Assembly: GCA_037308085.1 (NCBI GenBank)
Contig: CP147779.1
Span: forward strand, 2,272,001-2,336,000
DNA length: 64,000 nt
DNA from: Promethearchaeati archaeon SRVP18_Atabeyarchaeia-1
Lineage (GTDB): Archaea > Asgardarchaeota > Atabeyarchaeia > Atabeyarchaeales > Atabeyarchaeaceae
Direction: 5' to 3'
The position numbers and the translations under genes were made by a program. Below are positions 20,334 to 62,440 of the stretch, one piece after another. A model generated the notes under the pieces. It did no database searches and was not told the DNA's origin. It worked only from the letters and a program-made list of their open reading frames with translations. How positions within the stretch are numbered: the first letter of the stretch is position 1; each line of letters begins with the position of its first letter.

Positions 20334-20468
20334 TTAGTTGCTCCATAAGTGAATGCTACGTCACTTCCAATTAAGAACCGTGACATTTCATTGGTGATGG
20401 GTAGCGCCTGTTGCTCATCCTTTTTGATGAATGCAAGTATTTCTATCAATTAGTGAGAAGGCCGTCCT

Positions 20469-44037: not shown

Positions 44038-44799
44038 TCAGGATTCCAGCGATGAAGGCAAGGACGCTCCTCTTGCTGGTATCACATTTATTCCTTTTTC
44101 AGTGATTACCATGGGACTTGTCTTGGACTCATGAAGAGTTCCTCTCATCTTGACCACTGTAAGTCCTCGTTCAAACTTTCCACCGTGCCTTATCTGTTCC
44201 AGAAAGATCACGCCATCAGATATGAACTCCTCCACGTCATAGCGGCTTATCTGCCCCTTCCCGCGCCCCTCCGATATCAGGAGGGTTGTGCAACCGAGTT
44301 CTTTCAACGTGGCGATCAGCCGGTGGATGGCGTGCCGTATCGCGCCAGGTTCTTCGATGACGAGTTCAAGCCCAGGTATTGAGTCGAGTACTGCCCTCTT
44401 AGCATTCGTCGTTTTCTGGAGTTGGCTTATAGCCAACAGTAGAGTGTTCATGTTCAGGAGGCGGGTGACTTCGTCTCTGCCAGCATATGGAACCCTCGAC
44501 TTGGGCGAAGCAATATCTATTATCCCCAGTTTGCCATCTTTCTCCAGCTTCTCCAGATCCCACCCAAAACCTTTCATATCAGCTCTGACTGCTGAAGGTG
44601 ACTCTTCAGTTGTAATAAGAATACCATTCTCTCCGAACTTAGTGACACCTTCGACCAAGAATTGGATGCCCAAAATACTCTTTCCCGTGCCACATCCTCC
44701 AGTGACCAGAATGCACCTTCCTCTTGGAAACCCCCCGTGCAGGAGTTCATCGAGTTGCCCGATTCCAGAAGAAACCAAATTGCCTACCGGTTCACTCAT
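44038..44799 (-). CDS. KaiC-like ATPase, intact motifs
   Basis: SSGIGQLDELLHGGFPRG, GGCGTGKS, TEE, VEEFISDG, VKMRGT. Confidence 0.92.
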   Translation of the reverse strand: MSEPVGNLVSSGIGQLDELLHGGFPRGRCILVTGGCGTGKSILGIQFLVEGVTKFGENGILITTEESPSAVRADMKGFGWDLEKLEKDGKLGIIDIASPKSRVPYAGRDEVTRLLNMNTLLLAISQLQKTTNAKRAVLDSIPGLELVIEEPGAIRHAIHRLIATLKELGCTTLLISEGRGKGQISRYDVEEFISDGVIFLEQIRHGGKFERGLTVVKMRGTLHESKTSPMVITEKGINVIPARGASLPSSLES

Positions 44800-45152
44800 T
44801 GCTCGCACCTTCTGCCATAACACCTAATACTCGAAGCCCAGCGCCAAGGGAATACTCTCCTGACGCAGGCGAGTCCAGAATCTGTCAAAGAGCTCCTTTT
44901 TTCTGATTCTCCGCTGAAAGACATAATGGGGCAATCCCATATTTAAGCTGTGAATCGTTTTCAACGCCTCTCCTCCTAGCAACGAGGAGCCGGCGCGAAT
45001 ATTATTCGAAACCAGCCAGTTGCTGTTCCACACCTCGATTCCCATCATCTGGCGTATCCCACATATTTTGGCTTTCTTTCCTCATTTCATGTCAAGTTGC
45101 GCCATCGTTATTCTACTCGGTCGCCCTGTACTCGTCTCAGACTTATCGTGTT

Positions 45153-45869
45153 TCACTCCGTAGCCGGTTGTGAGAGCCCCTCTGTTCGCTGGATCTCGAA
45201 CAACAGATCACGCAAACTTGTAGAAGAGTAAGGTAGATTCAGACTGGTAGCGACAAGATTCAGACGGTCTAACAATACTTTCAGATTATGGGCTAGCGGG
45301 ATATCCAGCGCTTCGATAGTTTTCAGATCCATTTCGACAACCGGTTTCATCGCACCAACTATTTTCATGATCAAGTTATCTTGCTCTGATATAAGTGTAC
45401 CTTCCTGGGCGCTTTGCCCGCTATCTAGGTCCAGCAGCCTGCATGTCTCCGCAAAGATCTCCTTCGCGAAAGAATCATCAGGATTACAGCTATCTGCAAG
45501 TTTCGCGTTGAAGCCTGCTAAGAAATCTACTATCTCGTCGATCTTGTCAGACACTAGTTTTGGCGCTCTTATACTAAAGAAGACAATGAATGAATAGTAC
45601 CCGAGAGCCGGTAGGCTCCCAAGGGTTCCGAAGCCTATGGCCTCTATTTCGTCCATTGTTATCACTATGCCGGCTGTCTTTCCCTTCGTTGTGTTGAGTT
45701 GTATCATGGACTGCATTGCCAGCTGATTGGCTTGCGCCTCAGCGAGGAAACCTGCAGGGTACCTTGTTATAGGCGTCGGCCCAGATGAGAGGTCGAACCT
45801 GGAAATGAATACCCCTTTGACATATCTTGATGGGATCATGTTGGACGAGCTTGCTGCCAATTCCCTCAT
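45153..45869 (-). CDS. longin/uDENN-like protein
   Basis: N-terminal VFISRFDLSSGPTPITRYP, of the F-D/H-x3-GP-x4-YP type; paralog of 45969-46580. Confidence 0.6.
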   Translation of the reverse strand: MRELAASSSNMIPSRYVKGVFISRFDLSSGPTPITRYPAGFLAEAQANQLAMQSMIQLNTTKGKTAGIVITMDEIEAIGFGTLGSLPALGYYSFIVFFSIRAPKLVSDKIDEIVDFLAGFNAKLADSCNPDDSFAKEIFAETCRLLDLDSGQSAQEGTLISEQDNLIMKIVGAMKPVVEMDLKTIEALDIPLAHNLKVLLDRLNLVATSLNLPYSSTSLRDLLFEIQRTEGLSQPATE

Positions 45870-45968
45870 AACCTCTCATTTTTCATTGTGCATAATTCAT
45901 AACTGCCGTGAGCTTCTCTATCTTCCGAACGCGGGATTCTGCGTGGATCACTTTTCCCCTCGGCATTG

Positions 45969-46580
45969 TCAGTACTTTAGTTGAGCCTTTGACTCCTGAA
46001 GCACGGTTAGGAGCTGGGCGATTCGAGCCTTAGTCCCAGGCGCCACAAGTTCCAGTCTATTAAGATGTCCAGACTCAATGAAGGAGCTGATTGCAAGTAT
46101 CGTTTTGTCAGCAACCGCTTCTAACTTGTCACCGGGTTCGTTAAGAGCTTCCTCTTCATGAGACTTCTCGCAAACCCTTCGCACTCCTTCGAATAGCCTA
46201 AGTGCGGCATCTCCAGGGTGTCGCCTCACATTCTGCAACTCGCTTATTATGAGGCTTCTAATAAGGGGATACGTCTCCCAGATCATCGATTTAGCTTCTT
46301 CCCCAAACATCACTATTATCCCGGTAGCACCTTCAACGCTACTCCCCTCGGTCCCAACCACACCAACTTTGCCTATTTGGGAAAAAGACATAATTGAGCA
46401 GAGAGCCTCTTTCTTCCCTGTTGAGAGTAGCAACATGGCGTCCTCGGCGACATCCTTTAGCCCTTCGCCCGCGATGAATCCCTGTGGGTAGATAAAAGCC
46501 GGAGCTGGGCCCAGGAGCATGTCAAATCTGGTCACAATCACTCCCTCGAAAAGTAATCGCTCTGGTGACCTGCGCGACAA
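45969..46580 (-). CDS. longin/uDENN-like protein
   Basis: VIVTRFDMLLGPAPAFIYP. Confidence 0.6.
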   Translation of the reverse strand: MSRRSPERLLFEGVIVTRFDMLLGPAPAFIYPQGFIAGEGLKDVAEDAMLLLSTGKKEALCSIMSFSQIGKVGVVGTEGSSVEGATGIIVMFGEEAKSMIWETYPLIRSLIISELQNVRRHPGDAALRLFEGVRRVCEKSHEEEALNEPGDKLEAVADKTILAISSFIESGHLNRLELVAPGTKARIAQLLTVLQESKAQLKY

Positions 46581-47005
46581 TCTGGTTAACCCCCATTACC
46601 CCATCGTGCGTGCACTGCTCGAACACCGTGTTCAGCTAGTAGAGTAGTTGAAGTTCCTTTTATTTTCTTCTTACTTATCTTCTACACAGAATTGTCTCTC
46701 CGGGCTCCCTCGATGGTTAAGCGCTGACACCGAGACTCAACCATAGAACACCACATCCGCGATAGCCCTTTTCTCGCCTCGACTAGAGAAATTGGAGTCT
46801 GGCAAACAAGCTCTGGCCTGACTTGGGTCGGGAAAGGCACATCAAGCGCTAGGATGACTATGCGCATTATTAAGTTCATTTGCCTATGAACATTGTGAGC
46901 ATCGAAAGCGAGGTACGTTGATAGACTGTGCCCTGCAGAAATGACAACATTTATGATGCAGTGCGTGGTTAGCAGAAACTGACATGAGGGGGTGTTCTTC
47001 TGTAA

Positions 47006-47539
47006 ATGCCCATAATCAAAATTCTGATAATGGGTCTGCCAGCGTCCGGCAAGACAACTTTCGTCAAGCATGTCTTTGAAGGAAAGGAATTGAACGATCT
47101 GAAGGACTACATTCCGACATATGGCGTGAATATAGCATTGTATAACTACAAGGGCTCGGAGGACATTAAGATCTCAACCTTCGATTGTGGTGGTCAGACA
47201 AGTTTTATCGACACCTATTTGACTGATCAATGGGTTCCCAGACTCTTCGCGGAAGTCTCGGCTCTTTTCTTCGTGGTAGATTCGTCATCGAAGAAGACTC
47301 TCAAGGATGCCAACAAGCTTTTCCACAAGTACCTTGAGAACGTATACAAGTATTCTGAAGACGTAGTGATCCATGTACTGGCATCAAAATGGGACAAACA
47401 TACCATCACAAGAGATGAACTCAAGGAAGCATTCTCGGATCTCGACGTTCGTCCCATATCCGTCGTCGACGGTTCAGCCAGACAGGTTACGCAGGCGATA
47501 ATGGACAGGCTAATCAGCGAAAGGAAGACGAAAAAGTGA
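47006..47539 (+). CDS. small GTPase, RagA/Gtr1-like G domain
   Basis: G1 GLPASGKT, G2 PTYG, G3 DCGGQ followed by FIDTYLTDQ...LFAEV, G4 SKWD, G5-like ISVVD. Confidence 0.88.
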   Translation: MPIIKILIMGLPASGKTTFVKHVFEGKELNDLKDYIPTYGVNIALYNYKGSEDIKISTFDCGGQTSFIDTYLTDQWVPRLFAEVSALFFVVDSSSKKTLKDANKLFHKYLENVYKYSEDVVIHVLASKWDKHTITRDELKEAFSDLDVRPISVVDGSARQVTQAIMDRLISERKTKK

Positions 47540-47609
47540 CTCCCCTGCTTCTCCCATCTGCCAGCAATCATCGCTACGAGCAGGACTAGCAGGCTCTTGA
47601 CCTCCGCAA

Positions 47610-48362
47610 TTACCTTCGTCCCACCGTGAGCCTGCCAGTTCCACCGTTCCTCGATACTGGAATCCATTTGGACTCGAAGTTGGTCCTTCTCATCTTGGAT
47701 ATGCAGATCTCCTTGCTTATGAAGCCCTGTTGCTCTGCGTTTCTGAAGAGTATGACGGAATCGAGCAACTGCTGAAGAGAGGCCACAGTCTGCACGTCAT
47801 GCATTCCCTCCGTCAATATGAAGATCGAGGTTGAGTTTGACTCCTTGAGCTTGGCAACCATCACGGAAGCTAGTTGATAGACAGACTGGGGAGCCGCATT
47901 CATGAGCAATGACGACAGAATATCGACTGAAACCCTTATCCGCCTACCCCCTATCTTTTCGGTCGCTGTCGATACCGCGGCCGCTACGTGATTCAAATCC
48001 ATTGATGATCTTACAACCTTATCAATCACCTGAGGATAGGGAACATCAGTTGTCCGCCAACTGTAGCAATCAACGAACATTAGGCTGGACCTCTGCTCCT
48101 GCGTCAACTCGTCAAAGTCGAGGCCCACTTCCTGCCAACTCTCCTTGACTTCGTCAACAGATTCGTTTGAGAGAACCATCACTCCACCTTCACCAGCCCT
48201 CAACCCATCGGCTATGAATTGCAGGCAGAAAATGTGTTTCCAGCTTCCTGGAGGCCCGTACAGAAGAGTCGATGAACCCTGAGGTATTCCCCCCTCGATC
48301 AATGCATCAAGTCCTTCTATTCCTGAACTCATTCTTCTGCTCATTTCTCGCAGCTCCTCCAA
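47610..48362 (-). CDS. KaiC/RAD55-like protein with degenerate Walker A
   Basis: SSGIEGLDALIEGGIP, GPPGSWKH, VDCYSW, ISKMR. Confidence 0.88.
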   Translation of the reverse strand: MEELREMSRRMSSGIEGLDALIEGGIPQGSSTLLYGPPGSWKHIFCLQFIADGLRAGEGGVMVLSNESVDEVKESWQEVGLDFDELTQEQRSSLMFVDCYSWRTTDVPYPQVIDKVVRSSMDLNHVAAAVSTATEKIGGRRIRVSVDILSSLLMNAAPQSVYQLASVMVAKLKESNSTSIFILTEGMHDVQTVASLQQLLDSVILFRNAEQQGFISKEICISKMRRTNFESKWIPVSRNGGTGRLTVGRR

Positions 48363-48372
48363 GAGTTCCCTG

Positions 48373-48990
48373 CTAATGCTCCCATTCGTGTCCTGTCATT
48401 TCCAAGTTGTACCTAAACTCGCAGCATGAATCACCTTTCGCGGTGCACTTCGATTCGACGAAGCCCACCTTTCTTCCTAGGGAATGCTCCAAGGCACCCG
48501 CAATTACTCCTCCAGTAAAATAGCAGATACTCACTCCTATGTCCATAATCCCGCAACAGTCGGCACACTCTTCGACCTGATAAACCAACAGCTTGCCTTT
48601 CTCGAATTCAGTCAACGTCAAGAGACCGGTGCCAGTCGATTTGAATCCTGTCTGTAGCGCAGAGTACCCGGTTGAGAGTCTTGCCTCCTTGAGATTCTCA
48701 GCTTCAGCAAAATCACGGTAACCTGGGAGTTTCTGAAGCATTGGCATGCCTCCTTCTGTAAGTCCAATCCCAGTCTGCCTTCCAGCCTCGAAAAGCACGT
48801 GACCCATAGACTCAGCCAAGACCAGGGCTGCAAGCACTGGCCTCTGGTAAGTCAGTAGGTCAACTGAATCCCCAAGTTTCTCTCGGATCCTATCCTTGTA
48901 TCCTGGCGTGTGAAGCATTCTCTCAAGTTGCGCTTTCGTGAGTTCTCTAATGATCTCCTTCTCTCTCACAACACGTGCTCTCGTCGACAT
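48373..48990 (-). CDS. V4R-domain protein
   Basis: EECADC...ICYFTGGVIAG...ESKCTAKGDSCCEF. Confidence 0.88.
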   Translation of the reverse strand: MSTRARVVREKEIIRELTKAQLERMLHTPGYKDRIREKLGDSVDLLTYQRPVLAALVLAESMGHVLFEAGRQTGIGLTEGGMPMLQKLPGYRDFAEAENLKEARLSTGYSALQTGFKSTGTGLLTLTEFEKGKLLVYQVEECADCCGIMDIGVSICYFTGGVIAGALEHSLGRKVGFVESKCTAKGDSCCEFRYNLEMTGHEWEH

Positions 48991-49040
48991 CTCTTAACTT
49001 TCTCCTCGCGCTCTCCTTTATTTCTTTCTTCATTGACAGA

Positions 49041-49634
49041 CTATACTGTATATCTGAATTCACAGTTTGGGTCACCTTTTGCGCAACACTTCGATTCAAC
49101 AAATCCTACTTTTCTGCCAAGAACGCCTTCTAGAGTGCCAGCGATATTTCCACCAAGGAAGTAACATACACTCTGTCCCAAGTCTCCGACTCCATAGCAT
49201 ATGGCACACTCTTCAACCTGAACCACAATCAGCTTGTTCTTCTCAAATTCGCTTAACGTTAGGAGACCCTGGCGAGTTGTTTCTGCAAAAATCTGAAGAG
49301 TCGTAAACTCATCTGAAAGCCTAGCCTCCTCCAAGTTATTGGCATCAGCAATGCTACGAAAACCCGGTTGTTTCCGTACCTCGGGCCACATTTCCTCGAG
49401 CATGTAGGTTGCGGGTCTCCTGCCTGCCTCAAAAAGGATTGGTCCCATAGACCTGCTGAGAGACAAGGCACCAAGCATGCGTTCCTGGTAGGATAATAGG
49501 TCAACCGAGTCCCCAAGTTTTTCACGAATTCCGATCTTGCTAGGTGAACTTAGCAATTTCTCAAACTGCATTCTTGCCATGGCCTTGAGGACCTTCTCGG
49601 CGATCGTGAGCAGACAACCTCCCCCAATAATCAA
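49041..49634 (-). CDS. V4R-domain protein
   Basis: EECAIC...VCYFLGGNIAG...ESKCCAKGDPNCEF. Confidence 0.88.
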   Translation of the reverse strand: MIIGGGCLLTIAEKVLKAMARMQFEKLLSSPSKIGIREKLGDSVDLLSYQERMLGALSLSRSMGPILFEAGRRPATYMLEEMWPEVRKQPGFRSIADANNLEEARLSDEFTTLQIFAETTRQGLLTLSEFEKNKLIVVQVEECAICYGVGDLGQSVCYFLGGNIAGTLEGVLGRKVGFVESKCCAKGDPNCEFRYTV

Positions 49635-49663
49635 TCCAATCGATTAGCTATTAGCGTTGTATT

Positions 49664-50245
49664 TCATGAAATGCTACACCTGAATTCACAATAGGAATCT
49701 CCTTTAGCTTGGCATAGTGATTCGACGAAGCCGACGTTTTTTCCAATTACGACCTCCATTGCGCCAGCGAGCTGACCTCCGAGATAGTAACATACGCTTT
49801 CTCCGAGGTTAGGGAGCCCAGTGCAGGACACACATTCTTCAACTTGGAAAATGAGGAGTTTCCCTTTTTCGTATCTGACCATGTTTATAATCCCCGTACC
49901 AGTCATCTGATACATTGCTTGAACAATCGACCACTCAGTAGAGCGTTGGGCTTCCTGCAGCGTACTAGACTTATTGATACTCTGATAGTTTGGCAGCTTC
50001 TGTATCATGGATAGGGATTTCGTGGAGAGAGCCCTTCCAACTTTCTTTCCAGCTTCTGCTAGTACCGGTCCCATGGATTTGCTTAGAGCGAGTACTCCTA
50101 TCACGCGTTCTTGGTATGCCCACATGTCTATGAAATTGCCGAGCCTTTTGCGGAGCCTAGCGTTGACCTTTGGGTTCTCTATCAGTCTTTCAAACTGCCT
50201 TTCAGCTAACGCATCTAGAATATCGTCCGCTTTCAATTGAACCAC
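49664..50245 (-). CDS. V4R-domain protein
   Basis: EECVSC...VCYYLGGQLAG...ESLCQAKGDSYCEF. Confidence 0.88.
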   Translation of the reverse strand: MVQLKADDILDALAERQFERLIENPKVNARLRKRLGNFIDMWAYQERVIGVLALSKSMGPVLAEAGKKVGRALSTKSLSMIQKLPNYQSINKSSTLQEAQRSTEWSIVQAMYQMTGTGIINMVRYEKGKLLIFQVEECVSCTGLPNLGESVCYYLGGQLAGAMEVVIGKNVGFVESLCQAKGDSYCEFRCSIS

Positions 50246-50281
50246 GTCACTCCTTCCATGTTTTGATGTCCTTCCCTACTT

Positions 50282-50866
50282 CTAGCTTTCCCTAATCAAT
50301 CTGTTTAGATTCTCGATTTCCCTTCTATACTTGGTCCGCAGTTCTGGATCGTCTGCAAGATGTCCCCTGTTCTCGGCAGCTTTATTGATTAGATTAGTGA
50401 GTGAATCCTTCCGAGTCGTGAGTTCCGACGCGAGGAGTTTCGTTAGTCTCTGGCCCAGTCTTATGGGCGTCCTCACCGCGTCTTGGGTTTTGACTGGGGC
50501 GTAAGGTGGCTCACTGCTCTTCTGCGAGATAGGATCATCTTCACAAATCGCGGAATTTGGGAACTTGTCCATGTCGTTTTCAGCGAATGCATTCCTCACG
50601 TTCTCATGGAACCCCGAAGTACTATCCTCGTCGTGAGAAGCATCGACCAAAGCCGCGAAGATCAGTGATGGAGATTCGTTGAAGGCAGACTTTGAGGTTC
50701 CTGATGCCATGATTCTTATGTCAACGCCGCGAATCTCTTTCATGAACGCGATCATCGCCTTGAGGAGACCACTAACAAGGTAGCAGTTCACAAGTGTCGT
50801 CCTGAAACCCTCATGGTAGATGCAGATTCCATTCTTCTCTGAGACAACGCATGGTCCATGGGTCAT
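50282..50866 (-). CDS. longin-domain protein (possibly decaying)
   Basis: KNGICIYH...LVSGLLKAMIAFMKEI...LIFAALVD longin pattern. Confidence 0.62.
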   Translation of the reverse strand: MTHGPCVVSEKNGICIYHEGFRTTLVNCYLVSGLLKAMIAFMKEIRGVDIRIMASGTSKSAFNESPSLIFAALVDASHDEDSTSGFHENVRNAFAENDMDKFPNSAICEDDPISQKSSEPPYAPVKTQDAVRTPIRLGQRLTKLLASELTTRKDSLTNLINKAAENRGHLADDPELRTKYRREIENLNRLIRES

Positions 50867-51197
50867 ATATTATCACGACACAGTGATCTTAGCGATCATA
50901 CAGCAATCGCGATTTACCCCCCCAAGACTTCCTTACCCATGCAAAGTGGCCCGGTGCCGAGGGAAAACTACAGGAAGTAGCATCTACCTGGTAACAATAG
51001 GCAGAAGCAACGATAAAAACGTTGCGAGGTCATTGTGAGATCCACAATCTCCCCCATGATATTGTGGGATAAGCAGCATAGTTCACCTGCCCTTTTATCG
51101 GAATTGGTAGCATGGATGCTGCTTGGGCCCTCATCTTCGTACTTGAGGCTGGTGGGCGCAAAGCATGGACCAATAACGAGGAAGGGATTAAGAGGTA

Positions 51198-51480
51198 ATG
51201 AACAAACCGAAATACGGTGAGAAGGTCTCCACCGGGATTCCTGGGCTGGACGAACTCATCGAAGGCGGGTTCACGGAGACCGCCGAAGGGTCGTCAGATC
51301 TCAGCGGGCCTGGCGTCGAGAAATTTCTAGCCACTGGCATAGTTTCTCCAACATTAGAATCTAGGGGCAATGAACTCCAGAAAGATCGCAATACGGAAGA
51401 TGAGAGCGGTCACGCACAGCTTGAAGGAATTTGAGCTGTTCATCACTGAACTGGGGATTGCCGTTATGCCAATTCAAGGA
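51198..51480 (+). pseudogene. internally deleted, frameshifted KaiC-like remnant
   Basis: KVSTGIPGLDELIEGGF joined almost directly to GVEKFLATGIV; C-terminal RKIAIRKMRAVTHSLKEFELFITELGI lies in another frame. Confidence 0.8.
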
Positions 51481-51693
51481 ATTACATTAATCATCCTTTT
51501 CATGGATCTTCTTCAGGGGTTCTCTGCCAAACGTGAAGAGGTTGCCGATATCGGTCGAGTTGCGACAGTCGCACGAGGACCGGAGATTCATGCGCCGAAT
51601 AAGAATAGACCTTTAGTCGACTGCGACCACTATGGTAATTAGTGCCGTGGGCAATGGAGTCGTCTCACTAGCAGGCAGGAGCATCTGGCTAGG

Positions 51694-52509
51694 ATGATAA
51701 AAGCGGTTTGGATCCTATTGGACATCGGCCCGTGCCTGTACAGGTACGCTGCAGAGAAGCGATTCCAGGAGACAGATGAGAATCTCTTCTCAGGTTTCTT
51801 TGTTGCTTTGGAGACCTTCGCAAAAAGCATTGGCAGCGAGGAAGTCTTGAGAGTCGAACTGAGAGACTTGGCTCTTTGGTTCATGAAGGAAGCCAACGTC
51901 GTCTTCGTTGTGGCATCCGACAGAAGCGAGGATATGACTGAGATTCTGTTGAAGGTCAGTCGAGTGTTCAGTGAGGCTGCTCCAGATCTCCGTGCCCCTT
52001 TCTATAATCCACTTATCTCATCTGATGTGGCGGCACTCGAACAGAGGATTGATTCCAAAATCAGGGAGGTAATTCTATCACCAGTACCACCAGTTGGGGG
52101 GCTTGCCGAACAACTTGCCAAGGTAAAGGATGCGGTGACTTCGGCACTGCGCAAACCTCGCCCAGCCAAGCAGTCTGTCATAGCTGTGCAGGCTATCAGG
52201 CCAATTGAGGAGACAATTCCAGAACCCACTGAACCCAAGACAACTCAGCAACATGTTAGAGTGACGGGGGAGATGATTCCGAAACTGGAAAGGCCCCTAA
52301 CAGATGTTCTTAGAGAGAGGGAAAGACTCGTCAAGCGCTTCGGGGTTGCAGCGGTAGACATATTACATCATGCTGATGGCAAAATGACAGTGAGCGAAAT
52401 AGTAGCGGCGTCGAAGGCAGAGAAGAGTACGATTGAGGACGTTCTGAGTTTTGCTCAGAAGTTGGGGATTGTTGAATTCAAACAGAAAAAGCAGTATGCA
52501 AGCCCCTGA
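51694..52509 (+). CDS. longin domain plus C-terminal winged-helix protein
   Basis: MIKAVWILLDIGPCLY...DENLFSGFFVALETFAKSIG; tail ILHHADGKMTVSEIV...LGIVEF. Confidence 0.75.
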   Translation: MIKAVWILLDIGPCLYRYAAEKRFQETDENLFSGFFVALETFAKSIGSEEVLRVELRDLALWFMKEANVVFVVASDRSEDMTEILLKVSRVFSEAAPDLRAPFYNPLISSDVAALEQRIDSKIREVILSPVPPVGGLAEQLAKVKDAVTSALRKPRPAKQSVIAVQAIRPIEETIPEPTEPKTTQQHVRVTGEMIPKLERPLTDVLRERERLVKRFGVAAVDILHHADGKMTVSEIVAASKAEKSTIEDVLSFAQKLGIVEFKQKKQYASP

Positions 52510-52930
52510 GAGAACGAGCCCAGGGTTTTTTGCCCAGCCTTATGATCTTACGAGTCATGCTTGGCGTCGTTACTTCTAGTCCACAGAGTTATACAAGCTG
52601 CAGGCCTTGCCAGCACCTTTGTTGGGAGAGGGCACTGCTAGTAGCAGTCTAAACTCTGAGATCAGGTTGCCGAGGTCATCAACTGAAGGAATCCGAAAGC
52701 GGGGAGGGGCATGAAGAGGTCATACATTGGGGTCTTCAGAGTTCTCACGAGAGTCTTCCCTTGGGTTTGGGACGGACTAGAAATAGAGGGTTCGGATCCT
52801 GGGCACTTTGCTCGGAACCTGTGGGAACCCTTTTCATTCATCTTACTTCAGCCATCGACTCGGATCCAGAGCACTTAAGCGAGTTCCTGTAACTCTTCCC
52901 TTTTTCTTGATTTTCTTGGACTTCTATGTC

Positions 52931-53914
52931 TCATGCCTTCCATTTCTTTATGGTTACCCTTGTTCCTCTGCCGACCTCAGTTTCGATGCTGAACTCATCC
53001 ATGAGACGCTTCGCGCCACCAAGCCCTATTCCCAGACCCCTCTTGGTGCTGAAACCACCTTCGAGGGCCTTCTCAACATCTGCGATCCCAGGTCCGCTAT
53101 CGTCTGCAATTATCACGATGCCCACTCTGTCACCCTCCTCAATGGGTTTAATGGCTATCCTACCGGCTCCATGAGCATGAGCCACGATGTTCTTTGCGAG
53201 TTCAGAAGTCGAGATTGCAATCTTGCTTTGGTCGGCTTCCGAGAAGCCTAGTTTCTTCGCCAGGTCCTCCGCTTTCTCAGCCGCGGTCATTGCACGGGCA
53301 TCACTTGAGGCATCCACCCCTTCAACAATGGATCCGAATTCCTCCTCGTTCTCAACCGCGATGGCTATGGTGGCATCATCGTTTCTATTCCCCCATTCGT
53401 CCAGGATTCTTTCAGCAACGAATTGTGGTTGTTCGTAGGCCAGGGGATAATCGGATAAACTAAACCGCCCGGAAACCCCATCTGAATAAAGAACTACCGC
53501 TCTGAGTGTGTCGTATGTGTATCCGAATTTCATAATCTTCCTAGCATTTACTCCGAGTATACCATCTAGCGAGGTAGGATGCATCGGGGGCTCGGCAACT
53601 ATTGATACATCGACATTCCCAATGCCACAAAAAATGAGTCGGTGTGCAGTTCTATCAATCCTTACTGCCCCTGCGACCACGCCTCTCGTCCCACGTAAAT
53701 GGGTATGAAGACTTGAAACGATCTGTTCGACGTCTCTCGTGTGATTCTCTAACACATATTGTCTTGCCTTAGTAGACGCAACCGCTGCTTCTTCCCCGTG
53801 ACCGAGTCCGTCTATTACGACGAGAAGCGTCTGCCCATTCCATTCCTTTACGAGATAATCGTCACCATTTGTATTCTGGTCTAATGCCGGTCTGGATGCA
53901 ATACCTAATTTCAA
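52931..53914 (-). CDS. RsbX-like PP2C phosphatase fused to a C-terminal RsbT-like kinase
   Basis: NGD, IDGLGHG, YSDG, DDAT; then SELAKNI, DSGPGI, GFST..GLGIGLGGAKRLMDEF. Confidence 0.9.
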   Translation of the reverse strand: MKLGIASRPALDQNTNGDDYLVKEWNGQTLLVVIDGLGHGEEAAVASTKARQYVLENHTRDVEQIVSSLHTHLRGTRGVVAGAVRIDRTAHRLIFCGIGNVDVSIVAEPPMHPTSLDGILGVNARKIMKFGYTYDTLRAVVLYSDGVSGRFSLSDYPLAYEQPQFVAERILDEWGNRNDDATIAIAVENEEEFGSIVEGVDASSDARAMTAAEKAEDLAKKLGFSEADQSKIAISTSELAKNIVAHAHGAGRIAIKPIEEGDRVGIVIIADDSGPGIADVEKALEGGFSTKRGLGIGLGGAKRLMDEFSIETEVGRGTRVTIKKWKA

Positions 53915-54117
53915 GCGTTCTTCACACCCACTACGAGTTTCCTGCCGTCGGACGAGCTCATTCCTAAACTGTCACCTGTATTGTTGCCTGCTTACGAGAA
54001 TGGGTTCTGGATTCCATACCTCAAGTCCATGATCCCTGTCAATTATCTTTTACCGGGGTGAAGAGGAGATCTCTCGGCTTCCGAGCTCGAAGGAAGTTAT
54101 CTCCAGCTCTCCCTACT

Positions 54118-55074
54118 CTATTGTTTCTTGCTCAGCCTCAGCCCGAGTTTCTCGTACGCGTATTCTAGTCCTTCTCGCAACGTCCTGCGTGTCACGATGC
54201 CCTGCAGTTCCACACCGAGCTCCACTAGCGTAGCTGCCACATCCGGCCTAACCCCCGCGATGATCATCTCTGAGCCCATCAACCTCACGGCTTGGATCGT
54301 GCGCAGAATATGATTGGCTGCCTTCGTGTCAATCGCTGCGATGCCGCTAATATCCATAATGACGATCTCACTCTTAGCTCGTACAATGTACTCCAAGACA
54401 GATTCAGTGAACTGCCTCGCACGAGCAGAATCAAGAATACCTATCAGCGGCAGCATCACAATGCTCTCCCAGACCTCAACGATAGGAGTAGAGAGTCTTC
54501 TGATCATCTCGTCCCTTTCCTTGAGTTCATCCATGTTCCTTTTGGCTTTAATCTCCATCCGATTGCGCATTAACGCTTCGACGATGCTCACGGAGAGGGT
54601 CTCCACAGCCCCCTGATCAGTGGGATCATAGCCTGACTCCTTGTTGGCCAAAGCAATCATACCGATCGTCTTACCAGCATATTTCAACGGGACGCCCAGG
54701 AAAGAGGCTATCGGTGGATGCCCTTTAGGAGTTCCAACCCAATCGGGGTGTGTCGAAGGGTCATTGGTTATCATAGATCTCTCATCTTTCAGTACTCTCC
54801 CCCAGATCCCCCGGATCTCCAAGTTCCTAAGCAACCTCGCGGCTTCCGATCCCGGCATCCTACACTCAGCCCAACCTGGGTCACTCAAAGCAATACAGTC
54901 ATAACGACCAACTTGATTCACTTCACCTATGAAACCGAACTTGCTACCGGTCAAGCTCTCGGCAACGGCAAGGCAGGTCTTGCAGAGTTGCTCTTCTGTT
55001 TCACATGTCAACGTTTCCCTGAGAATCCTGTTTACCCCCTCCAGAATGTCGCTCCTATCAATGTCTTTTCTCAC
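54118..55074 (-). CDS. RsbR paralog: GAF sensor plus STAS
   Basis: GAF (FGFIGEV, PKGHPPIASFLGVPL, GMIALAN); STAS (LSTPIVEVW, PLIGILDSARA, DISGIAAIDT). Confidence 0.9.
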   Translation of the reverse strand: MRKDIDRSDILEGVNRILRETLTCETEEQLCKTCLAVAESLTGSKFGFIGEVNQVGRYDCIALSDPGWAECRMPGSEAARLLRNLEIRGIWGRVLKDERSMITNDPSTHPDWVGTPKGHPPIASFLGVPLKYAGKTIGMIALANKESGYDPTDQGAVETLSVSIVEALMRNRMEIKAKRNMDELKERDEMIRRLSTPIVEVWESIVMLPLIGILDSARARQFTESVLEYIVRAKSEIVIMDISGIAAIDTKAANHILRTIQAVRLMGSEMIIAGVRPDVAATLVELGVELQGIVTRRTLREGLEYAYEKLGLRLSKKQ

Positions 55075-55204
55075 CTCTTTCTCACCACCCTAGTTCTATC
55101 AGAAATCCGGTCTGAGAAACAATCCAAGCTTCTTTCCATAATCAGATCACGTTGCCACAAAACCGCGACAGAAGTCTGGGAGCAGTATGAAATCCGAAGC
55201 ACCC

Positions 55205-55609
55205 TCATAACCACTTTCTTATCGTTACTTCAGTACCTTCTCCGACCTTGGTCTTGATGTCGAACTCATTCATTAGTTTCTTGCTGCCTGAGAGGCCCAT
55301 GCCCAGCCCTCTGCTTGTGCTGTGACCCCCTTTCAGGGCCGATTCGAGATCTCTTATACCAGGTCCGTGATCCTCGACAACAATCTCTATTCCACGTCTT
55401 CCTTGTCTGTCGACCGGTCTGATCGTCACCATCCCCTTGCCTGCGTACTGGAAGGCGTTTCTGGCAAGCTCGGATACTGCGGTTGCTATCCTCGTTTGGT
55501 CCATGTAGTTGAACCCCATGGCTTCCGCTATCGCCTTCGCCTTGACTCTAGCTATCACTATATCAGCCTCGCTCGTGACTTCTAAGGCCACAATCGACAC
55601 CTGCACCAT
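55205..55609 (-). CDS. rsbT: stressosome switch kinase RsbT
   Basis: DIVIAR, DQTRIATAVSELARN, DHGPGI, GLGMGLSGSKKLMNEF. Confidence 0.93.
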   Translation of the reverse strand: MVQVSIVALEVTSEADIVIARVKAKAIAEAMGFNYMDQTRIATAVSELARNAFQYAGKGMVTIRPVDRQGRRGIEIVVEDHGPGIRDLESALKGGHSTSRGLGMGLSGSKKLMNEFDIKTKVGEGTEVTIRKWL

Positions 55610-55611
55610 AG

Positions 55612-55986
55612 TTACGGTCTCCCTGCCTGACGAAGGATCTCCATACCTTTCTCAAGATCTCTCGCTGTGTGAACTTTTTCTAGCGAGAACCCCATTTCCA
55701 CCAGCGTCATCGCAACGTCGGGTCTTAGACCGGTAATTACAACTTGGGCGCCCATTATATTCGCAGCTGTCGCGATCTCACCTATTTGTCGCACAAGGAA
55801 GCTGTCCACAATATCTATCGCGCTCACGTCGAGGACAAGCCCTTTCGCCTTCGTTTCGACGATTCTCTGAAGTATTTCATCTTTGTACTTCACAGCCAGT
55901 CTGTCATGGAGCGGCACCTGCGGAGAGGTGATTAGAAATTCTCCTGACTTCAAGATTGGAATGGTAACTTTCTCCAAACCTATCAT
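55612..55986 (-). CDS. rsbS: stressosome scaffold RsbS (STAS)
   Basis: IPILK, LDVSAIDIVDSF (phospho-Ser), GLRPDVAMTLVEMG. Confidence 0.92.
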   Translation of the reverse strand: MIGLEKVTIPILKSGEFLITSPQVPLHDRLAVKYKDEILQRIVETKAKGLVLDVSAIDIVDSFLVRQIGEIATAANIMGAQVVITGLRPDVAMTLVEMGFSLEKVHTARDLEKGMEILRQAGRP

Positions 55987-56828
55987 CTCGCACTAGTCCT
56001 AGTCAGTTTCAATCCCAGCTTCGCGTATGCATACTCAAGCCCATCTCTCAACGTGCTACGCGAAACGATGCCCGATAAGTCGATGCCAAGCGTCACGAGA
56101 GTTACTGCGACATCAGGTCTAATACCAGTAACCACGACCTCTGAACCCATTAGTCTCACAGCTTGTATTGTCCGAAGGATGTGACTGGCCACCTTTGTAT
56201 CGATCGCGGTGATGCCACTGATGTCCATGACGACGACTTCTGTCTTTGATCGCATTATGTTCTCCAGAATCAACTCAGTGAGCTGCTTTGCACGAGAAGA
56301 ATCAAGAATCCCTATCAGAGGTACCATCGCGATGCCTTCCCAAGCGCTGACGATAGGTATGAGCAGTCTCAGGCCCATCTCTTGTTGCTTGATGACGGAT
56401 TCCTTTTCGGTGACGAATGCGGAGGCTACAATGTTCAGGATTTTGCGTGCCACTGGCTCGTAGACGGCAATAACCGCACTGCACGTTTCTGGGTCTTTAT
56501 AGTTATTTTCAAAGATGAACCGACCGTACAGGTCTCTCAGAATCAGGAAGCCTGCGATTATCTGCTCAACCGTCATCGATGCCAGAACTCCTTTCTTAGC
56601 AACATTCGCTGCATATCTTTGGGCTGATTCGTATGATCCAGTCTTCAAGCACAATAGGCATTCGTTGTAGATCGCTCTCGACTCCTCCTCTATCTCCCTG
56701 GGGGAGAGGGACACGAGTAGACCAGATTGTCGCATTTCATTGATCCACCGCGACCTGATCTCGTCTGCATTCTGCTCCAGCAGATTACTTAAAGTCCTTA
56801 CAAGTTCCTGGCTATTCTTCTTCGACAT
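55983..56828 (-). CDS. rsbR: stressosome protein RsbR (helical N-domain plus STAS)
   Basis: helical N-terminus (IRSRWINEM); PLIGILDSSRA, DISGITAIDTKVA. Confidence 0.9.
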   Translation of the reverse strand: MSKKNSQELVRTLSNLLEQNADEIRSRWINEMRQSGLLVSLSPREIEEESRAIYNECLLCLKTGSYESAQRYAANVAKKGVLASMTVEQIIAGFLILRDLYGRFIFENNYKDPETCSAVIAVYEPVARKILNIVASAFVTEKESVIKQQEMGLRLLIPIVSAWEGIAMVPLIGILDSSRAKQLTELILENIMRSKTEVVVMDISGITAIDTKVASHILRTIQAVRLMGSEVVVTGIRPDVAVTLVTLGIDLSGIVSRSTLRDGLEYAYAKLGLKLTRTSAR

Positions 56829-56980
56829 CCCACTCTCATCTCCATAGTCATTTGCGTCATAATCACTTTAGAACCTTTTACATTCCTTTCTGCGTGGAAA
56901 GAAATCCTTGAAAACCTGAATAATATAGGCAATTTCTCCACTCCTGCTCCATCTGTGCCTAGAACAAGCCTGGTTGTCCT

Positions 56981-57544
56981 TCATAGTCTGATCACCTCAT
57001 CGCAGAATTGTCTTACCGTCGAGAGGACATTCCCTTCAACTGAACCCTCAACCGCGAAAATCGCACCGTCAAACCCGAGAACCCTAAGACGGCCAACCAG
57101 GAAGTGAAGGAAATGAAGCAGCGCGCCCGAGCTATTGTAGACTAATAGAGTTGAGAGTGAGTCGATTAATAGCCATGAGTCATCTCTCTTGCAGTTTAGT
57201 AGTTCGACAGCCTTCTCGAAAGCCATCTGCGTGGCTGACAACTCAGAGGGTGATGCTACGTTGAGGCTACCTTTCACCTCACTAGACCCGACACTCTTCG
57301 ACACGAGATCTATGACGTAGGTTTTCTCAGTCTCAAGAGACTCTCTTAGGTCAAACCCGTAGACCCTCAGCTTTTCGACAAGATCCTTTGTCGACCTATT
57401 TGAGGAGACGTAGATCCCTTTATCATCCTGCCTATACCTTAAGAAGTCTGCCACAATCTTCATCGGGTTCTCACTGACAGGAACCTCCAGTAGCACGACG
57501 GACTTGGGCACAACGCGTTTAAGCCTGTCCTCAAGTTTCACCAT
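56981..57544 (-). CDS. inactivated KaiC/RecA-fold protein
   Basis: no Walker A; LLIDSLSTLLVYN, FLHFL, QFCDEVIRL. Confidence 0.75.
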   Translation of the reverse strand: MVKLEDRLKRVVPKSVVLLEVPVSENPMKIVADFLRYRQDDKGIYVSSNRSTKDLVEKLRVYGFDLRESLETEKTYVIDLVSKSVGSSEVKGSLNVASPSELSATQMAFEKAVELLNCKRDDSWLLIDSLSTLLVYNSSGALLHFLHFLVGRLRVLGFDGAIFAVEGSVEGNVLSTVRQFCDEVIRL

Positions 57545-57563
57545 TTGAATATCGTACCTCGTG

Positions 57564-57881
57564 TCAAATCATTGATCTCTTCTTAATCTCCTCAATAGCG
57601 GTTTGCAACTCCATATCCTTGAGAAGAGCGTAATCCACATTTAGCTTATCACACAATGTCTTCAGAACCAGTCCGTCTATGACTTTGGCCCCCAGCTTGA
57701 AGATGTCTTTGATCGCTGTGGCAAAGTCTTCAAGCCTTTTCGGGATCTGGTCCTTCCTAAGTGAGAGGGCGGCCGCCAGGTAAGTGTACAGGAGCGATCT
57801 AGTACTCTCACCCAAATTCAACATCGCATCGTCTATTGAACTGAGCAGGAGTTCCTCAAAGCTATTTGGTTCGCTACTCAA
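57564..57881 (-). CDS. small helical protein of the type often found next to archaeal KaiC/sensor genes
   Basis: LLSSIDDAMLNLGES...IPKRLEDFATAIKDIFKLGAKVI. Confidence 0.7.
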   Translation of the reverse strand: MSSEPNSFEELLLSSIDDAMLNLGESTRSLLYTYLAAALSLRKDQIPKRLEDFATAIKDIFKLGAKVIDGLVLKTLCDKLNVDYALLKDMELQTAIEEIKKRSMI

Positions 57882-57935
57882 CTAGCTACCTCCCTACGTT
57901 CGCTGCTTGAAGATACGATAGATTAAACCAGATTA

Positions 57936-58664
57936 TCATCTACTGGCAGCGGGAATTGAGGACACGCTTATGCCTTCGGACGTGATATAGAAGTCGTGGC
58001 AATCCAATGAATGGTCGACGCCACGCATCTTTGGAATGTAGATCCTTCTCCTAACCTTGTTTTCCTCCAAACTCGATTCGAGGATGATTAGTCCGTCAGC
58101 TAGGAATTCCTCAAATCCCATTCCTATCTCCCTCTTGCCCCAGGGAATCTCCAAGATGAGGAGGGTTGTGCACCCAGTATTCGAAAGCAACTTGCTCATC
58201 ATTGAGATGAAGCTGCGGGCCTCAGACCTTGTGTGGACATAAGTCATGATAGCGGAGAGGCTGTCGACCACGAGTCGCTTGGCACCAAGTTCCGTGATGG
58301 AAGAGATCAGCTCTGCGAGGTTCGCTTCGACGCCTCTGTCGCTTGCCGACTGTACAAGGTCTAGAACGCTGAGCTTTCCTCCTTGCCCCAGCTTGTCCAG
58401 ATCCCAGCCAAGTCTGAGCATATCTCGCTTGAGCTTGGCGGCGCTCTCAACAAAGGATGCATAGATCCCCGGCTCATTCAGCAGCGATACACCGTTATAA
58501 ATGAACTGCATACCAAGAGTACTTTTCCCGGCGCCAGGCTGACCCGCTACCAGAATCACGTCTCCCTCATTGAAGCCACCGTCAATTATCCTATCCAGGG
58601 AAGGGATCCCCGAAGACAACACGTTTCTTCTCAATCTCAATATCCCCCTGCATGATCGTCCCAC
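57936..58664 (-). CDS. KaiC-like ATPase, intact Walker A
   Basis: SSGIPSLDRIIDGGF, GQPGAGKS, RLVVDS, EEFLADG, KMRG. Confidence 0.92.
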   Translation of the reverse strand: MGRSCRGILRLRRNVLSSGIPSLDRIIDGGFNEGDVILVAGQPGAGKSTLGMQFIYNGVSLLNEPGIYASFVESAAKLKRDMLRLGWDLDKLGQGGKLSVLDLVQSASDRGVEANLAELISSITELGAKRLVVDSLSAIMTYVHTRSEARSFISMMSKLLSNTGCTTLLILEIPWGKREIGMGFEEFLADGLIILESSLEENKVRRRIYIPKMRGVDHSLDCHDFYITSEGISVSSIPAASR

Positions 58665-61800: not shown

Positions 61801-62375
61801 TTTGATTTCGCCTTATGCGTGTCGACGTGCTTCTTAATTGCGTCCGTAATCATGTTCTTCGTAACTTCGGTTTCCTGCTTGAGTTTCTCCAGCATCTCAG
61901 CGATGCTCTTCGAAGAGTTCTGCTCGTATAGCTCTATTTCACCTTTTGTTTGACCCACGCTTGATCTTGCAGTTTGCAGGGCCTCTTTCTTCCACTCCTC
62001 GCAGTTCTGGCTAACAGCTGCCAAGGTGGAATCAATAGTGCTTGTTGTGTTCGCCCCTATGTTCTTGGCAATCTTCTGAAAGTCCTTAAGAAAAGCCACG
62101 AACCCCGCATAAGGAGGTATGGCTGCATATCGGTCGACCACACTGGGGATCCGCCTGATCAACCGCTCATTTTCTAACTCAACCATCGCTTTCGATGTCA
62201 ACACGAAACCCAAACCACTCTTAGTTGAGATCTCTCCGGCTGTCATAGGACCGATGCTGAGAAGAACCCTGAGCGCATCTGTCGCCGGGTCGGAGATGCC
62301 CATTGCTTCCTTCAAGATCTGATTAAATAACACGCCTTCTTCTCCAACAGTCTTTGCCTGCGTCTCCTTTGCCAT
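58887..62375 (-). CDS. TrmB-like wHTH, ~900-aa helical/coiled-coil region and C-terminal TrmB effector (PLD-like) domain
   Basis: LLSIGPMTAGEISTKSG...YAAIPP; long heptad region; tail MIKRTKSHIMIMLP...KDSEEILFAP. Confidence 0.8.
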   Translation of the reverse strand: MAKETQAKTVGEEGVLFNQILKEAMGISDPATDALRVLLSIGPMTAGEISTKSGLGFVLTSKAMVELENERLIRRIPSVVDRYAAIPPYAGFVAFLKDFQKIAKNIGANTTSTIDSTLAAVSQNCEEWKKEALQTARSSVGQTKGEIELYEQNSSKSIAEMLEKLKQETEVTKNMITDAIKKHVDTHKAKSNEAEAELASGIGNVTTKFDTAAKNYLKEATDVTSSFLESYKGGVQTFLGTVNTDLQEYKTQSRENLTLLENEIASIQGKLEEKERATIVAVKARSSETLENQRKTFGEKSLEVQSNIREVTDRFMKSASSNLSKLKSSVDETTKSFTAELTRLLAEFKEKTATSVGKWWFMYKADVNESAQLVSRSLDILVNSAIREGDKISSTAQTMVESVAAKTKPSFEELRARVEEVYSSGLANLTGAASAIKGTLSGTITSHISSCQLTTSFLESILSTIIPGCNNALGTVVSDIERNLQKMSIALGKKNDALLSGLSQKAESKVSSYFPALEKEMNGIVERILASVPSIPIAENPARVSTKKSPGAARKTSITSEVREVLKGFEKRVTDELRKYLKEEVATAHRSFEEEITGIQTDVVAAPSTNIKNARLELQKGEVVAASLLPRFADYSSSVGSFENLVLDMIDVSAKQYAGESEIARKALADLYAKQIASLTRIQKQLIESANAQHALHTKEISDLAAETHASLEAALAKHLDQLDGHIQRGKSNLQQLVVQTSKNSDGARSLIQSNVNKLVSSTFATSKEITETTTNSIRGAMAAVTGEFDNLAAALQRDLTSFSGQAMEEIKNLVEASTTRVSESKENLSGQIEQLTGKTVKELNDVSNKQINTMVDTTSTICTSLTKLTNTSLGEFKSEAAGAKERFQRVISSHLQDYEQEAFGAAGTCGYLLSRSYERYREISMVNEKNLQETMLTHQTRFENSMTNTDSTLIGYIDKNEALLKEETRKSLANLSESIDKLRKTSASVEWVLQSAWMELEKSPMFGGEKSWPVVTKVALMSHVQDMIKRTKSHIMIMLPTVSEAPLEEIPKVKKATRVTLVVGETKGDEKEMQTLAEIAKMGNVSLRASADLSCYGCSKDSEEILFAPMAQKDTELVGLVSIGEPYIELFEKILTPALLGSSYDLKESAKPQTAPKKSEK

Positions 62376-62440
62376 CCTATCATTCCACTCCTTAAGATGA
62401 CTCTTTTAGATTATTCACGAAAATGCGAATCATTGCTCAA

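Follow-up and report, generated by a model that had tools for sequence, protein, structure and literature searches.

A stressosome operon joined to KaiC-family genes within a 15-kb signaling-gene island of an Atabeyarchaeia genome

A 15-kb island at positions 44038 to 58664 of a 64,000-nucleotide stretch (the window, C1:2272001-2336000) of the closed 2,808,651-bp genome of SRVP18_Atabeyarchaeia-1 (G000) combines stressosome genes with genes for KaiC-family ATPases, V4R proteins, longin-fold proteins, and a small GTPase. Gene identities were assigned with Pfam scans and by reading open reading frames (ORFs), and relatives were compared by tblastn. The island holds four KaiC-family genes and one KaiC pseudogene, three V4R genes, four longin-fold genes (lgA to lgD), one gene for a Gtr1/RagA-Arf-like GTPase, and genes for two RsbR proteins, RsbS, RsbT, a PP2C-RsbT fusion, and a small helical protein. 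These genes form five transcription units, with the GTPase gene and lgD on the plus strand (Table 1). A first-pass annotation had described the same content, which is borne out by Pfam and, for the longins, by structure. Its total of 17 genes or remnants disagrees with its own list, which sums to 19, and one of its five KaiC-fold genes is the pseudogene remnant, the other four being genes. We give about an even chance to the reading that this stretch is several KaiC-centered archaeal signaling modules joined together, with the stressosome plugged into a KaiC triad (g19, g18, and g17), and not one linear pathway.

Catalytic or acceptor motifs are kept in RsbS, both RsbR proteins, RsbT, and the PP2C. 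The I-D-T motif can be read in both RsbR-type proteins, and N51, D80-G82-G84, and G101-G103-G105 are invariant in an alignment of RsbT, the gene for which sits after rsbS. The SpoIIE match in the PP2C fusion covers residues 27-151 and is the sole PP2C match in the genome; the C terminus of the fusion is 49-50% identical to RsbT. All three STAS matches, the single SpoIIE/PP2C match, and both HATPase_c_2 matches of the closed genome fall inside the island.

The stressosome of Bacillus subtilis and Listeria consists of RsbR, RsbS, and RsbT, with RsbX, and its output is RsbU, RsbV/W, and sigma-B. Other archaeal copies of RsbRST feed histidine kinases, and neither archaeal stressosome cassettes nor non-sigma outputs of stressosomes are new. 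No known stressosome output partner (RsbU/V/W-sigma B, histidine kinase/response regulator, or GGDEF) was found in the closed G000 genome, in which HisKA, Response_reg, and GGDEF gave zero matches; the control genomes did match. Thus, the lack of an RsbU, histidine kinase, or cyclic di-GMP output that the first-pass annotation reported for the window holds, in Pfam searches, for the whole closed genome. Exclusion of every conventional output leaves the conserved KaiC triad as a candidate for stressosome signaling without sigma factors. G000, a soil Asgard archaeon with no sigma factors, appears to be without two-component and cyclic di-GMP signaling altogether, yet it has 25 KaiC-family matches in 2.81 Mb. 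Five intact KaiC-family matches lie within 22 kb here, compared with ~0.2 expected if paralogs were independent, which they are not. Two further, adjacent KaiC-family matches, one open frame with an internal TAG, are present at 19557-21182 of the window (minus strand; G000:2291557-2293182).

The organization of the stressosome operon recurs in relatives. In Atabeyarchaeia-2 (Candidatus Atabeyarchaeum deiterrae; G002), a family-level relative of G000, the order KaiC, g18, inactive KaiC, RsbR, RsbS, RsbT, PP2C is found with gaps of 0-160 bp. The same KaiC-g18-g17-rsb-PP2C order is present in L020 and L022, which, like L021, are metagenomic contigs of relatives. The second sensor gene, GAF-STAS, is absent in G002 and present in L020 at 87% identity. 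Bathyarchaeia-type loci (L013, L015, L017/L025, and L026; L024 to L026 are from species-representative Bathyarchaeia genomes) have KaiC, a small protein, inactive KaiC, RsbR, RsbS, RsbT, and PP2C, with or without a second RsbT-like gene, and a g17 that is 47-62% identical; PP2C and the second RsbT-like domain are two separate genes in Bathyarchaeia. Among the 83 g17 homologs found, those in G002, the same-genus draft G001, L013, L015, L017, and L020 to L022 lie directly upstream of RsbR or a PAS-RsbT fusion. The KaiC-stressosome block is the sole block of the island conserved outside the family. The recurrence of its order in Atabeyarchaeia-2, metagenomic relatives, and Bathyarchaeia supports the link of the stressosome to KaiC that the first-pass annotation had drawn. 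Among the best 79 RsbT loci in species-representative genomes (1 from Atabeyarchaeia, 3 from Bathyarchaeia, 5 from Methanoperedens/Alkanophaga, and ~70 bacterial), KaiC-family neighbors of RsbT were found at all four Atabeyarchaeia and Bathyarchaeia loci, at none of the five Methanoperedens/Alkanophaga loci, and at none of the ~70 bacterial loci.

Different RsbT-bearing sensors can follow the inactive KaiC. In G001 and L021 a PAS-RsbT fusion takes this position and STAS genes are missing from its vicinity, and L022 carries both the PAS-RsbT fusion and the full rsb set. There was no STAS match anywhere in G001, a result that is not proof of absence in a draft genome that is 94% complete. The KaiC-stressosome operon moves as a unit between two genomic sites, one with GFO_IDH/PIG-L flanks (G002, L020, and G001) and the other with g20/lgD flanks (G000, L021, and L022). 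Identities are discordant along the G000 operon. The g19 protein is 81-82% identical to its counterparts in L021 and L022 versus 63% for G002, whereas RsbR, RsbS, RsbT, and the PP2C fusion are 61-76% identical to those of L022 versus 87-94% for G002. Therefore, the rsb cassette has been joined anew to another KaiC triad. Sensor exchange, translocation as a unit, and mosaic identities argue that the coupling has been selected rather than inherited by chance.

In this reading the functional core is the minus-strand operon at 52931-58664, from g19 to PP2C-RsbT2. By analogy with bacterial stressosomes, a scaffold of RsbR, GAF-RsbR, and RsbS would hold RsbT, which on a signal would phosphorylate the Ser/Thr positions of the STAS domains and then be released, with the PP2C resetting the scaffold. 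Judging from linkage only, free RsbT, or PAS-RsbT, might act on the triad of KaiC, adaptor, and inactive KaiC in place of RsbU, and PP2C-RsbT2 might dock on the scaffold by its RsbT-like domain. The KaiC triad would be a constant socket and the RsbT-bearing sensors (RsbRST, PAS-RsbT, or both) exchangeable plugs. The longin-V4R x3-inactive KaiC, GP-longin pair-KaiC, and KaiC-GTPase groups may be parallel KaiC-linked modules of the same design that cluster with the stressosome in some Atabeyarchaeia only.

However, several points weigh against a stressosome that works through KaiC. We infer the RsbT-to-KaiC step from gene linkage alone, and KaiC could act upstream of the stressosome. In the Bathyarchaeia locus L024, only the inactive KaiC is present, near a GAF-PAS histidine kinase. 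A survey of 400 Asgard genomes gave seven others with RsbT, and five of these loci had enough sequence to judge. There is no KaiC within ~8-9 kb of four of them (L126 to L128 and L130), nor within ~8 kb of any of the five Methanoperedens/Alkanophaga stressosome loci. Therefore, the KaiC-stressosome coupling is lineage-specific. The remaining one of the five judged Asgard loci, in G309, lies 4.4 kb from two genes for double-domain KaiC proteins. In the four Asgard loci of other families that lack a nearby KaiC, one frame of ~340 amino acids encodes the second RsbT-like domain ahead of PP2C (L126:10042-10980, L127:9146-10102, L128:10214-11170, and L130:3138-4124), the reverse of the domain order in the Atabeyarchaeia PP2C-RsbT2.

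Table 1. Features of the island and its upstream neighbor (positions in the window; units a to e are the transcription units)
Feature	Position	Strand	Unit	Evidence
KaiC-family ATPase g01, last gene of lgB-lgA-KaiC operon	44038..44823	-	a	Pfam KaiC 1.5e-71; Walker A GGCGTGKS intact
g02, 74-aa ORF	44824..45048	-	a	unsupported: no Pfam match, no tblastn match in relatives
lgA, GP-motif longin-fold, lgB paralog	45153..45869	-	a	alignment with lgB: invariant G-V...F-D...G-P
lgB, GP-motif longin with helical tail	45969..46580	-	a	AF2 pLDDT 85, beta-beta-alpha-beta-beta-beta-alpha longin
Small GTPase, Gtr1/RagA-Arf-like, 177 aa	47006..47539	+	b	Pfam Gtr1_RagA 4e-22, Arf 2.7e-17
g06, inactivated KaiC-like, last gene of lgC-V4R operon	47610..48362	-	c	Pfam KaiC 5e-33, DUF7504, MEDS; Walker A GPPGSWKH
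Three tandem V4R paralogs	48373-48990, 49041-49634, 49664-50245	-	c	Pfam V4R 5e-12 to 2.5e-14
lgC, N-terminal longin-like domain, first gene of V4R operon	50282..50866	-	c	Atlas structure, Fuz_longin_1 clusters
KaiC pseudogene remnant, between lgC and lgD	~51192..51483	+		tblastn with intact divergent KaiC of L021, L022, G002, E ~1e-19
lgD, longin-like N terminus and C-terminal winged helix	51694..52509	+	d	Atlas structure: Fuz_longin_1, Sybindin clusters, TM by row 0.75-0.82
PP2C (RsbX-like) with second RsbT-like kinase domain (PP2C-RsbT2)	52931..53914	-	e	Pfam SpoIIE 3.4e-6, HATPase_c_2 8e-11
GAF-STAS, second RsbR-type sensor	54118..55074	-	e	Pfam GAF_2 7.6e-24, STAS 1.5e-14
RsbT switch kinase	55205..55609	-	e	Pfam HATPase_c_2 1.5e-13; N, G1, G2 boxes intact
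RsbS, 124 aa	55612..55986	-	e	single STAS, Pfam 3e-10; V-D-S phospho-acceptor position kept
RsbR	55983..56828	-	e	helical N-domain and STAS, Pfam STAS 7e-13; I-D-T position kept; weak RsbRD_N match E 0.013
g17, inactivated KaiC (KaiC/DUF7504)	56981..57544	-	e	Pfam; no P-loop
g18, 105-aa five-helix adaptor, PH0832 fold	57564..57881	-	e	AF2 pLDDT 89
KaiC-family ATPase g19, first gene of stressosome operon	57936..58664	-	e	Pfam KaiC 1.4e-60; Walker A GQPGAGKS intact
g20, 1162 aa, upstream of the operon and outside 44038-58664	58887..62375	-		TrmB-type winged helix (Pfam TrmB 5.5e-4), long coiled coil, Apolipoprotein-like repeats

The single-domain KaiC proteins g01 and g19 keep the G-x-x-G-x-G-K-S motif, and g17 (no P-loop) and g06 (GPPGSWKH) provide the operon-encoded inactivated KaiC paralogs of an archaeal KaiC-like signaling hub (Table 1). 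The small protein g18 is a real, conserved helical protein, the model of which matched 2p9x (PH0832 of Pyrococcus) with a VIA Z of 14.0 and a root mean square deviation of 2.1 Å over 97 residues; the next match had a Z of 6.6. Pyrin/death-fold matches to g18 were weak (Z 4.9), and a g18 homolog had a weak match (E 0.033) to NitrOD5, which is assigned to the "Death domain-like" family of the KaiC-hub work (PMC5847659). In a small sample, g18 homologs detectable by tblastn accompanied RsbT-bearing loci (L013, L015, L017, L020 to L022, and G002) and not the che-linked loci L012, L018, and L019. Other g17 homologs lie with KaiC beside TrmB, receiver, and che genes and have no rsb genes. Therefore, of the two, the KaiC pair is older and more general, with the stressosome among its partners. 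A literature search returned no relevant combination of stressosome, archaea, and KaiC and no mention of an operon of KaiC, adaptor, inactive KaiC, and RsbRST, though Makarova 2017 may list it.

Genes of TrmB type occur close to the KaiC pair in L012, L013, L015, L018, L019, L021, and L022. One of them is g20, which adjoins the KaiC triad in L021 and L022 and not in G002. Together with g21 (286 amino acids, no family), g20 forms a pair (window 58887-63301, minus strand) that is conserved in G002, L021, and L022. We do not claim g20 as an output regulator, since in G002, L020, and L017 it does not neighbor the operon.

The blocks of the island are arranged differently from one relative to another. 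In G002 they lie at five places: KaiC(-)//lgC-V4R x4-g06 at 1.59 Mb, lgB-lgA-g01 at 2.066 Mb, the GTPase gene at 2.116 Mb, KaiC-g18-g17-RsbR-S-T-PP2C/RsbT2 at 2.284 Mb, and lgD at 2.635 Mb. In L020, the rsb block is alone, apart from V4R and GTPase genes. In G001, lgB-lgA-GTPase is on one contig and g01 and g17 are on another, with 13 kb of unrelated cargo between them. Three TnpB/IS605-type genes lie between the g01 KaiC and PAS-RsbT in G001 (L005, G001:C220; 1738-3075, 6992-8056, and 11507-12829), which suggests transposon-driven remodeling of the site. L021, on the other hand, has the order g21, g20, g19, g18, g17, PAS-RsbT, lgD, KaiC, lgC, V4R x2, g06, lgB, lgA, g01, which is that of G000 except for the lack of an internal GTPase and of STAS genes, and L022 has the G000 order as far as its contig reaches. 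Some relatives, at about genus-to-family distance, share the whole-island linkage, which others either lost or never acquired; the sub-blocks stay intact in every case.

These arrangements bear on the pathway proposed in the first-pass annotation, in which RsbT, once released, signals by way of KaiC and V4R to a Rag-like GTPase with its longin regulators, all as one pathway. All of its parts are within 15 kb in G000, the order is repeated in L021 (minus the GTPase) and in L022 (to the contig end), KaiC-GTPase operon pairs are kept in G000, G002, L021, and L022, clusters of longin-V4R and longin-GTPase fusions exist in Asgard, and the KaiC genes of G309 are close to a stressosome. However, the rsb and GTPase/V4R blocks, whose separation in relatives the annotation had named as evidence against its own proposal, are unlinked: they are dispersed in G002, and the rsb block stands apart in G001 and L020. 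No V4R, longin, or GTPase genes occur within 7-8 kb of the Bathyarchaeia KaiC-rsb operons, the L021 island has no GTPase inside it, and the GTPase of G000 lacks a roadblock domain. The onward route through KaiC/V4R to a Rag-like switch is therefore not upheld, the step on to the GTPase is unsupported, and we consider the single pathway unlikely.

The same variability could mean that independent modules were gathered by recombination between KaiC paralogs, or in a rearrangement-prone region, as a neutral juxtaposition. The differing arrangement among close relatives, the mosaic identities along the stressosome operon, the TnpB/IS605-type genes in the equivalent region of G001, and the KaiC pseudogene within the island all fit this explanation, which is quite possible at the level of the whole island. 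However, it leaves unexplained why the KaiC triad and rsb genes were kept together across Asgard and Bathyarchaeia and why differing RsbT-bearing sensors occupy the same position after the inactive KaiC. As an account of the stretch, we regard neutral juxtaposition as doubtful, though a possibility to be taken seriously. For the reading of joined KaiC-centered modules, what matters is that each of the conserved operons neighboring the stressosome carries a KaiC-family gene (lgC-V4R-g06, lgB-lgA-g01, and KaiC-GTPase), which suggests that the partner common to the modules is KaiC rather than a Rag-like switch.

In the first of these operons (gaps of 10-50 bp), lgC is followed by three V4R genes, an alignment of which has an invariant Cys cluster, and by the degenerate KaiC gene g06. 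The operon is kept in G002 (four V4R copies; lgC ortholog 49% identical) and in L021 (two copies). An intact divergent KaiC lies nearby in G002, L021, and L022, and the pseudogene of G000 matches ~25 residues at the N terminus and ~70 at the C terminus of the KaiC that is intact at the same position in relatives. None of the four longins has a Pfam longin match; their assignment is by structure. The low-confidence Atlas model of lgC matched longin clusters with TM 0.5-0.72 (Fuz_longin_1 TM by row 0.72), as well as longin-V4R and longin-GTPase fusion clusters in Asgard. Cluster matches of lgD also included clusters bearing TrmB/HTH_47, and lgD has weak TrmB/HTH matches at residues 220-266. There was no BLASTP similarity between lgC and lgD.

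V4R domains are also found fused to other domains. In G000 itself, a 417-amino-acid protein (G000:C1:1784247-1785500, minus strand; L117:1247-2500) has KaiC at residues 6-238 and V4R at its C terminus, a fusion-level link between two families that share an island operon. A 448-amino-acid protein (G000:C1:1170207-1171553, minus strand; L119:1207-2553) has a TrmB winged helix with a C-terminal V4R, which suggests V4R as the sensor for a transcription regulator. Proteins of 500-543 amino acids in other Asgard families (L107:793-2424, L106:1105-2607, and L110:1093-2688) begin with a thioredoxin domain and also carry two V4R domains, and a thioredoxin gene lies beside the KaiC-GTPase pair in L021 and L022. 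The V4R subtype of the island was found in Atabeyarchaeia only, among 301 Asgard genomes, and a scan of metagenome contigs with a narrow V4R alignment returned two short contigs only. A Cys cluster equivalent to that of the island proteins binds Zn in Thor-TRAPPC3 and PoxR (PMC10933270). Because V4R is fused to KaiC, TrmB, and thioredoxin and the Zn/Cys site is conserved, the evidence favors V4R here as a sensor of ligand or redox state that feeds into KaiC rather than a TRAPP-like exchange factor.

The second operon, lgB-lgA-KaiC, keeps its order in G002 (71% identity) and L021 (89%). The lgA/lgB family has just 23 representative clusters, and the contigs that carry its distant homologs P0095 and P0097 are only 1.4 and 2.8 kb long and give no informative gene context. 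The best Foldseek matches of lgB in the PDB were a Loki longin (8yqg), DENND1, SMCR8/C9orf72, FLCN-FNIP2, GATOR1, and Lst4. Residues G24-P25 of lgB, invariant in lgA/lgB, are at the start of beta2 and fit the GP motif position defined in PMC12290439. The lgA/lgB alignment has no invariant arginine that could be a finger; R or K is found just before the F-D motif.

The island GTPase adjoins lgB-lgA in G000 and G001 only, and the conserved partner of lgB-lgA is KaiC. A C-terminal roadblock domain is the defining feature of Rag GTPases and mediates their heterodimerization; there is none in the 177-amino-acid GTPase, which ends with the G domain. An ORF at 46682-47071 (minus strand) that overlaps the start of the GTPase gene has no support and was treated as spurious. 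In G002 the GTPase ortholog is alone between DHDPS and g20, which are the flanks of the whole island in G000. The nearest homolog outside the family (G029) has 308 amino acids, and no KaiC or longin neighbor of it was found by tblastn. Beyond the window end, at G000:2337242-2338713 (L009:1242-2713), a KaiC gene (268 amino acids) is followed by a second Gtr1/RagA-Arf-like GTPase gene (179 amino acids). This second GTPase is 60% identical to the island GTPase, and the KaiC-GTPase pair is kept in G002, L021, and L022.

It might also be that the longin, V4R, and GTPase genes are unrelated to the stressosome and encode a proto-TRAPP exchange factor and a proto-FLCN/GATOR1 GTPase-activating protein (GAP) for a small GTPase, with a membrane role. 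Three V4R proteins related to Bet3/TRAPPC3 with a sybindin-like longin mirror the TRAPP core (PMC10933270), a GP motif specific to longins of the GAP type occurs in lgA and lgB, and lgB-lgA adjoin the GTPase gene in two genomes. However, the partner of lgB-lgA that is conserved in G002 and L021 is KaiC, no invariant arginine was found in lgA/lgB, the V4R fusions (those with thioredoxin in other Asgard) and the retained Zn/Cys site fit a ligand or redox sensor better, and the island V4R subtype is confined to Atabeyarchaeia among the genomes surveyed. We consider such a membrane system very unlikely. A further conceivable arrangement is one network in which the stressosome, Cys-cluster V4R, Rag/Arf-like GTPases, and two paired GP-longins with a GAP-like function converge on mixed KaiC/inactive-KaiC oligomers, as a forerunner of Rag/GATOR/TRAPP-type nutrient and stress signaling with KaiC in place of the later TOR-type kinases; this, too, seems improbable to us.

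The eukaryotic-signature longins, V4R/TRAPPC3-like proteins, and Rag/Arf-like GTPases of Asgard archaea are commonly interpreted as components of trafficking. In MK-D1 their genes are generally outside operons, which prevents the matching of partners (PMC10933270). The longin, V4R, and GTPase genes of Atabeyarchaeia each share a conserved operon with a gene for a KaiC-family ATPase, which provides concrete candidate partners and suggests a signaling rather than a membrane role for these proteins. If the reading of KaiC-centered modules is true, it would connect two signaling systems that have so far been treated separately, the stressosome of bacteria and the KaiC hub of archaea. PMC12962969 leaves Rag, folliculin, NPRL2, GATOR, V4R, and KaiC all unmentioned.

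Comparison with known systems shows partial likeness in each case. As in FLCN-FNIP, GATOR1 (NPRL2/3), and C9orf72-SMCR8, which are among the best structural matches, two paralogous longins are encoded side by side with a GP motif before beta2, and a Gtr1/RagA-Arf-like GTPase is adjacent in two genomes. In contrast to those complexes, lgA and lgB have no DENN-type C-terminal domain, no invariant arginine finger was identified in them, the GTPase is without a roadblock, and the conserved partner is KaiC. As in the TRAPP core and prokaryotic V4R proteins such as Thor-TRAPPC3 (Podar 2008; PMC10933270), several Bet3-related V4R paralogs are encoded with a longin and have a Cys cluster like the Zn site. 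Unlike in the TRAPP core, an inactive KaiC gene closes the operon here, V4R also occurs in fusions with KaiC and with TrmB in this genome, and there is no conserved GTPase link.

The likeness to the stressosome of B. subtilis and Listeria includes the order rsbR-rsbS-rsbT followed by PP2C, the STAS phospho-acceptor positions, the N, G1, and G2 boxes of RsbT, and several RsbR paralogs with differing sensor domains. However, there is no RsbU, RsbV, RsbW, or sigma factor here, the PP2C is fused to a second RsbT-like domain, and the genes for KaiC, the helical adaptor, and the inactive KaiC open the operon. A second RsbT-like kinase after the PP2C was common among the bacterial loci of the RsbT census. 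Re-use of the cassette with a non-sigma output is shared with RsbRST modules such as that of Vibrio vulnificus, which has a two-component output (PMC9237108, PMC10014275), whereas the closed genome here is without HisKA, REC, and GGDEF and the only conserved neighbors are KaiC-family proteins. KaiC-like ATPases have been proposed as archaeal signal-transduction hubs (Makarova, Galperin, and Koonin 2017, as summarized in PMC5847659). As far as that summary describes the hub, the island resembles it in having active and inactivated single-domain KaiC paralogs tied to varied inputs, with a small adaptor (g18) that may be of the "Death domain-like" kind described there, and in the grafting of bacterial components onto an archaeal KaiC framework.

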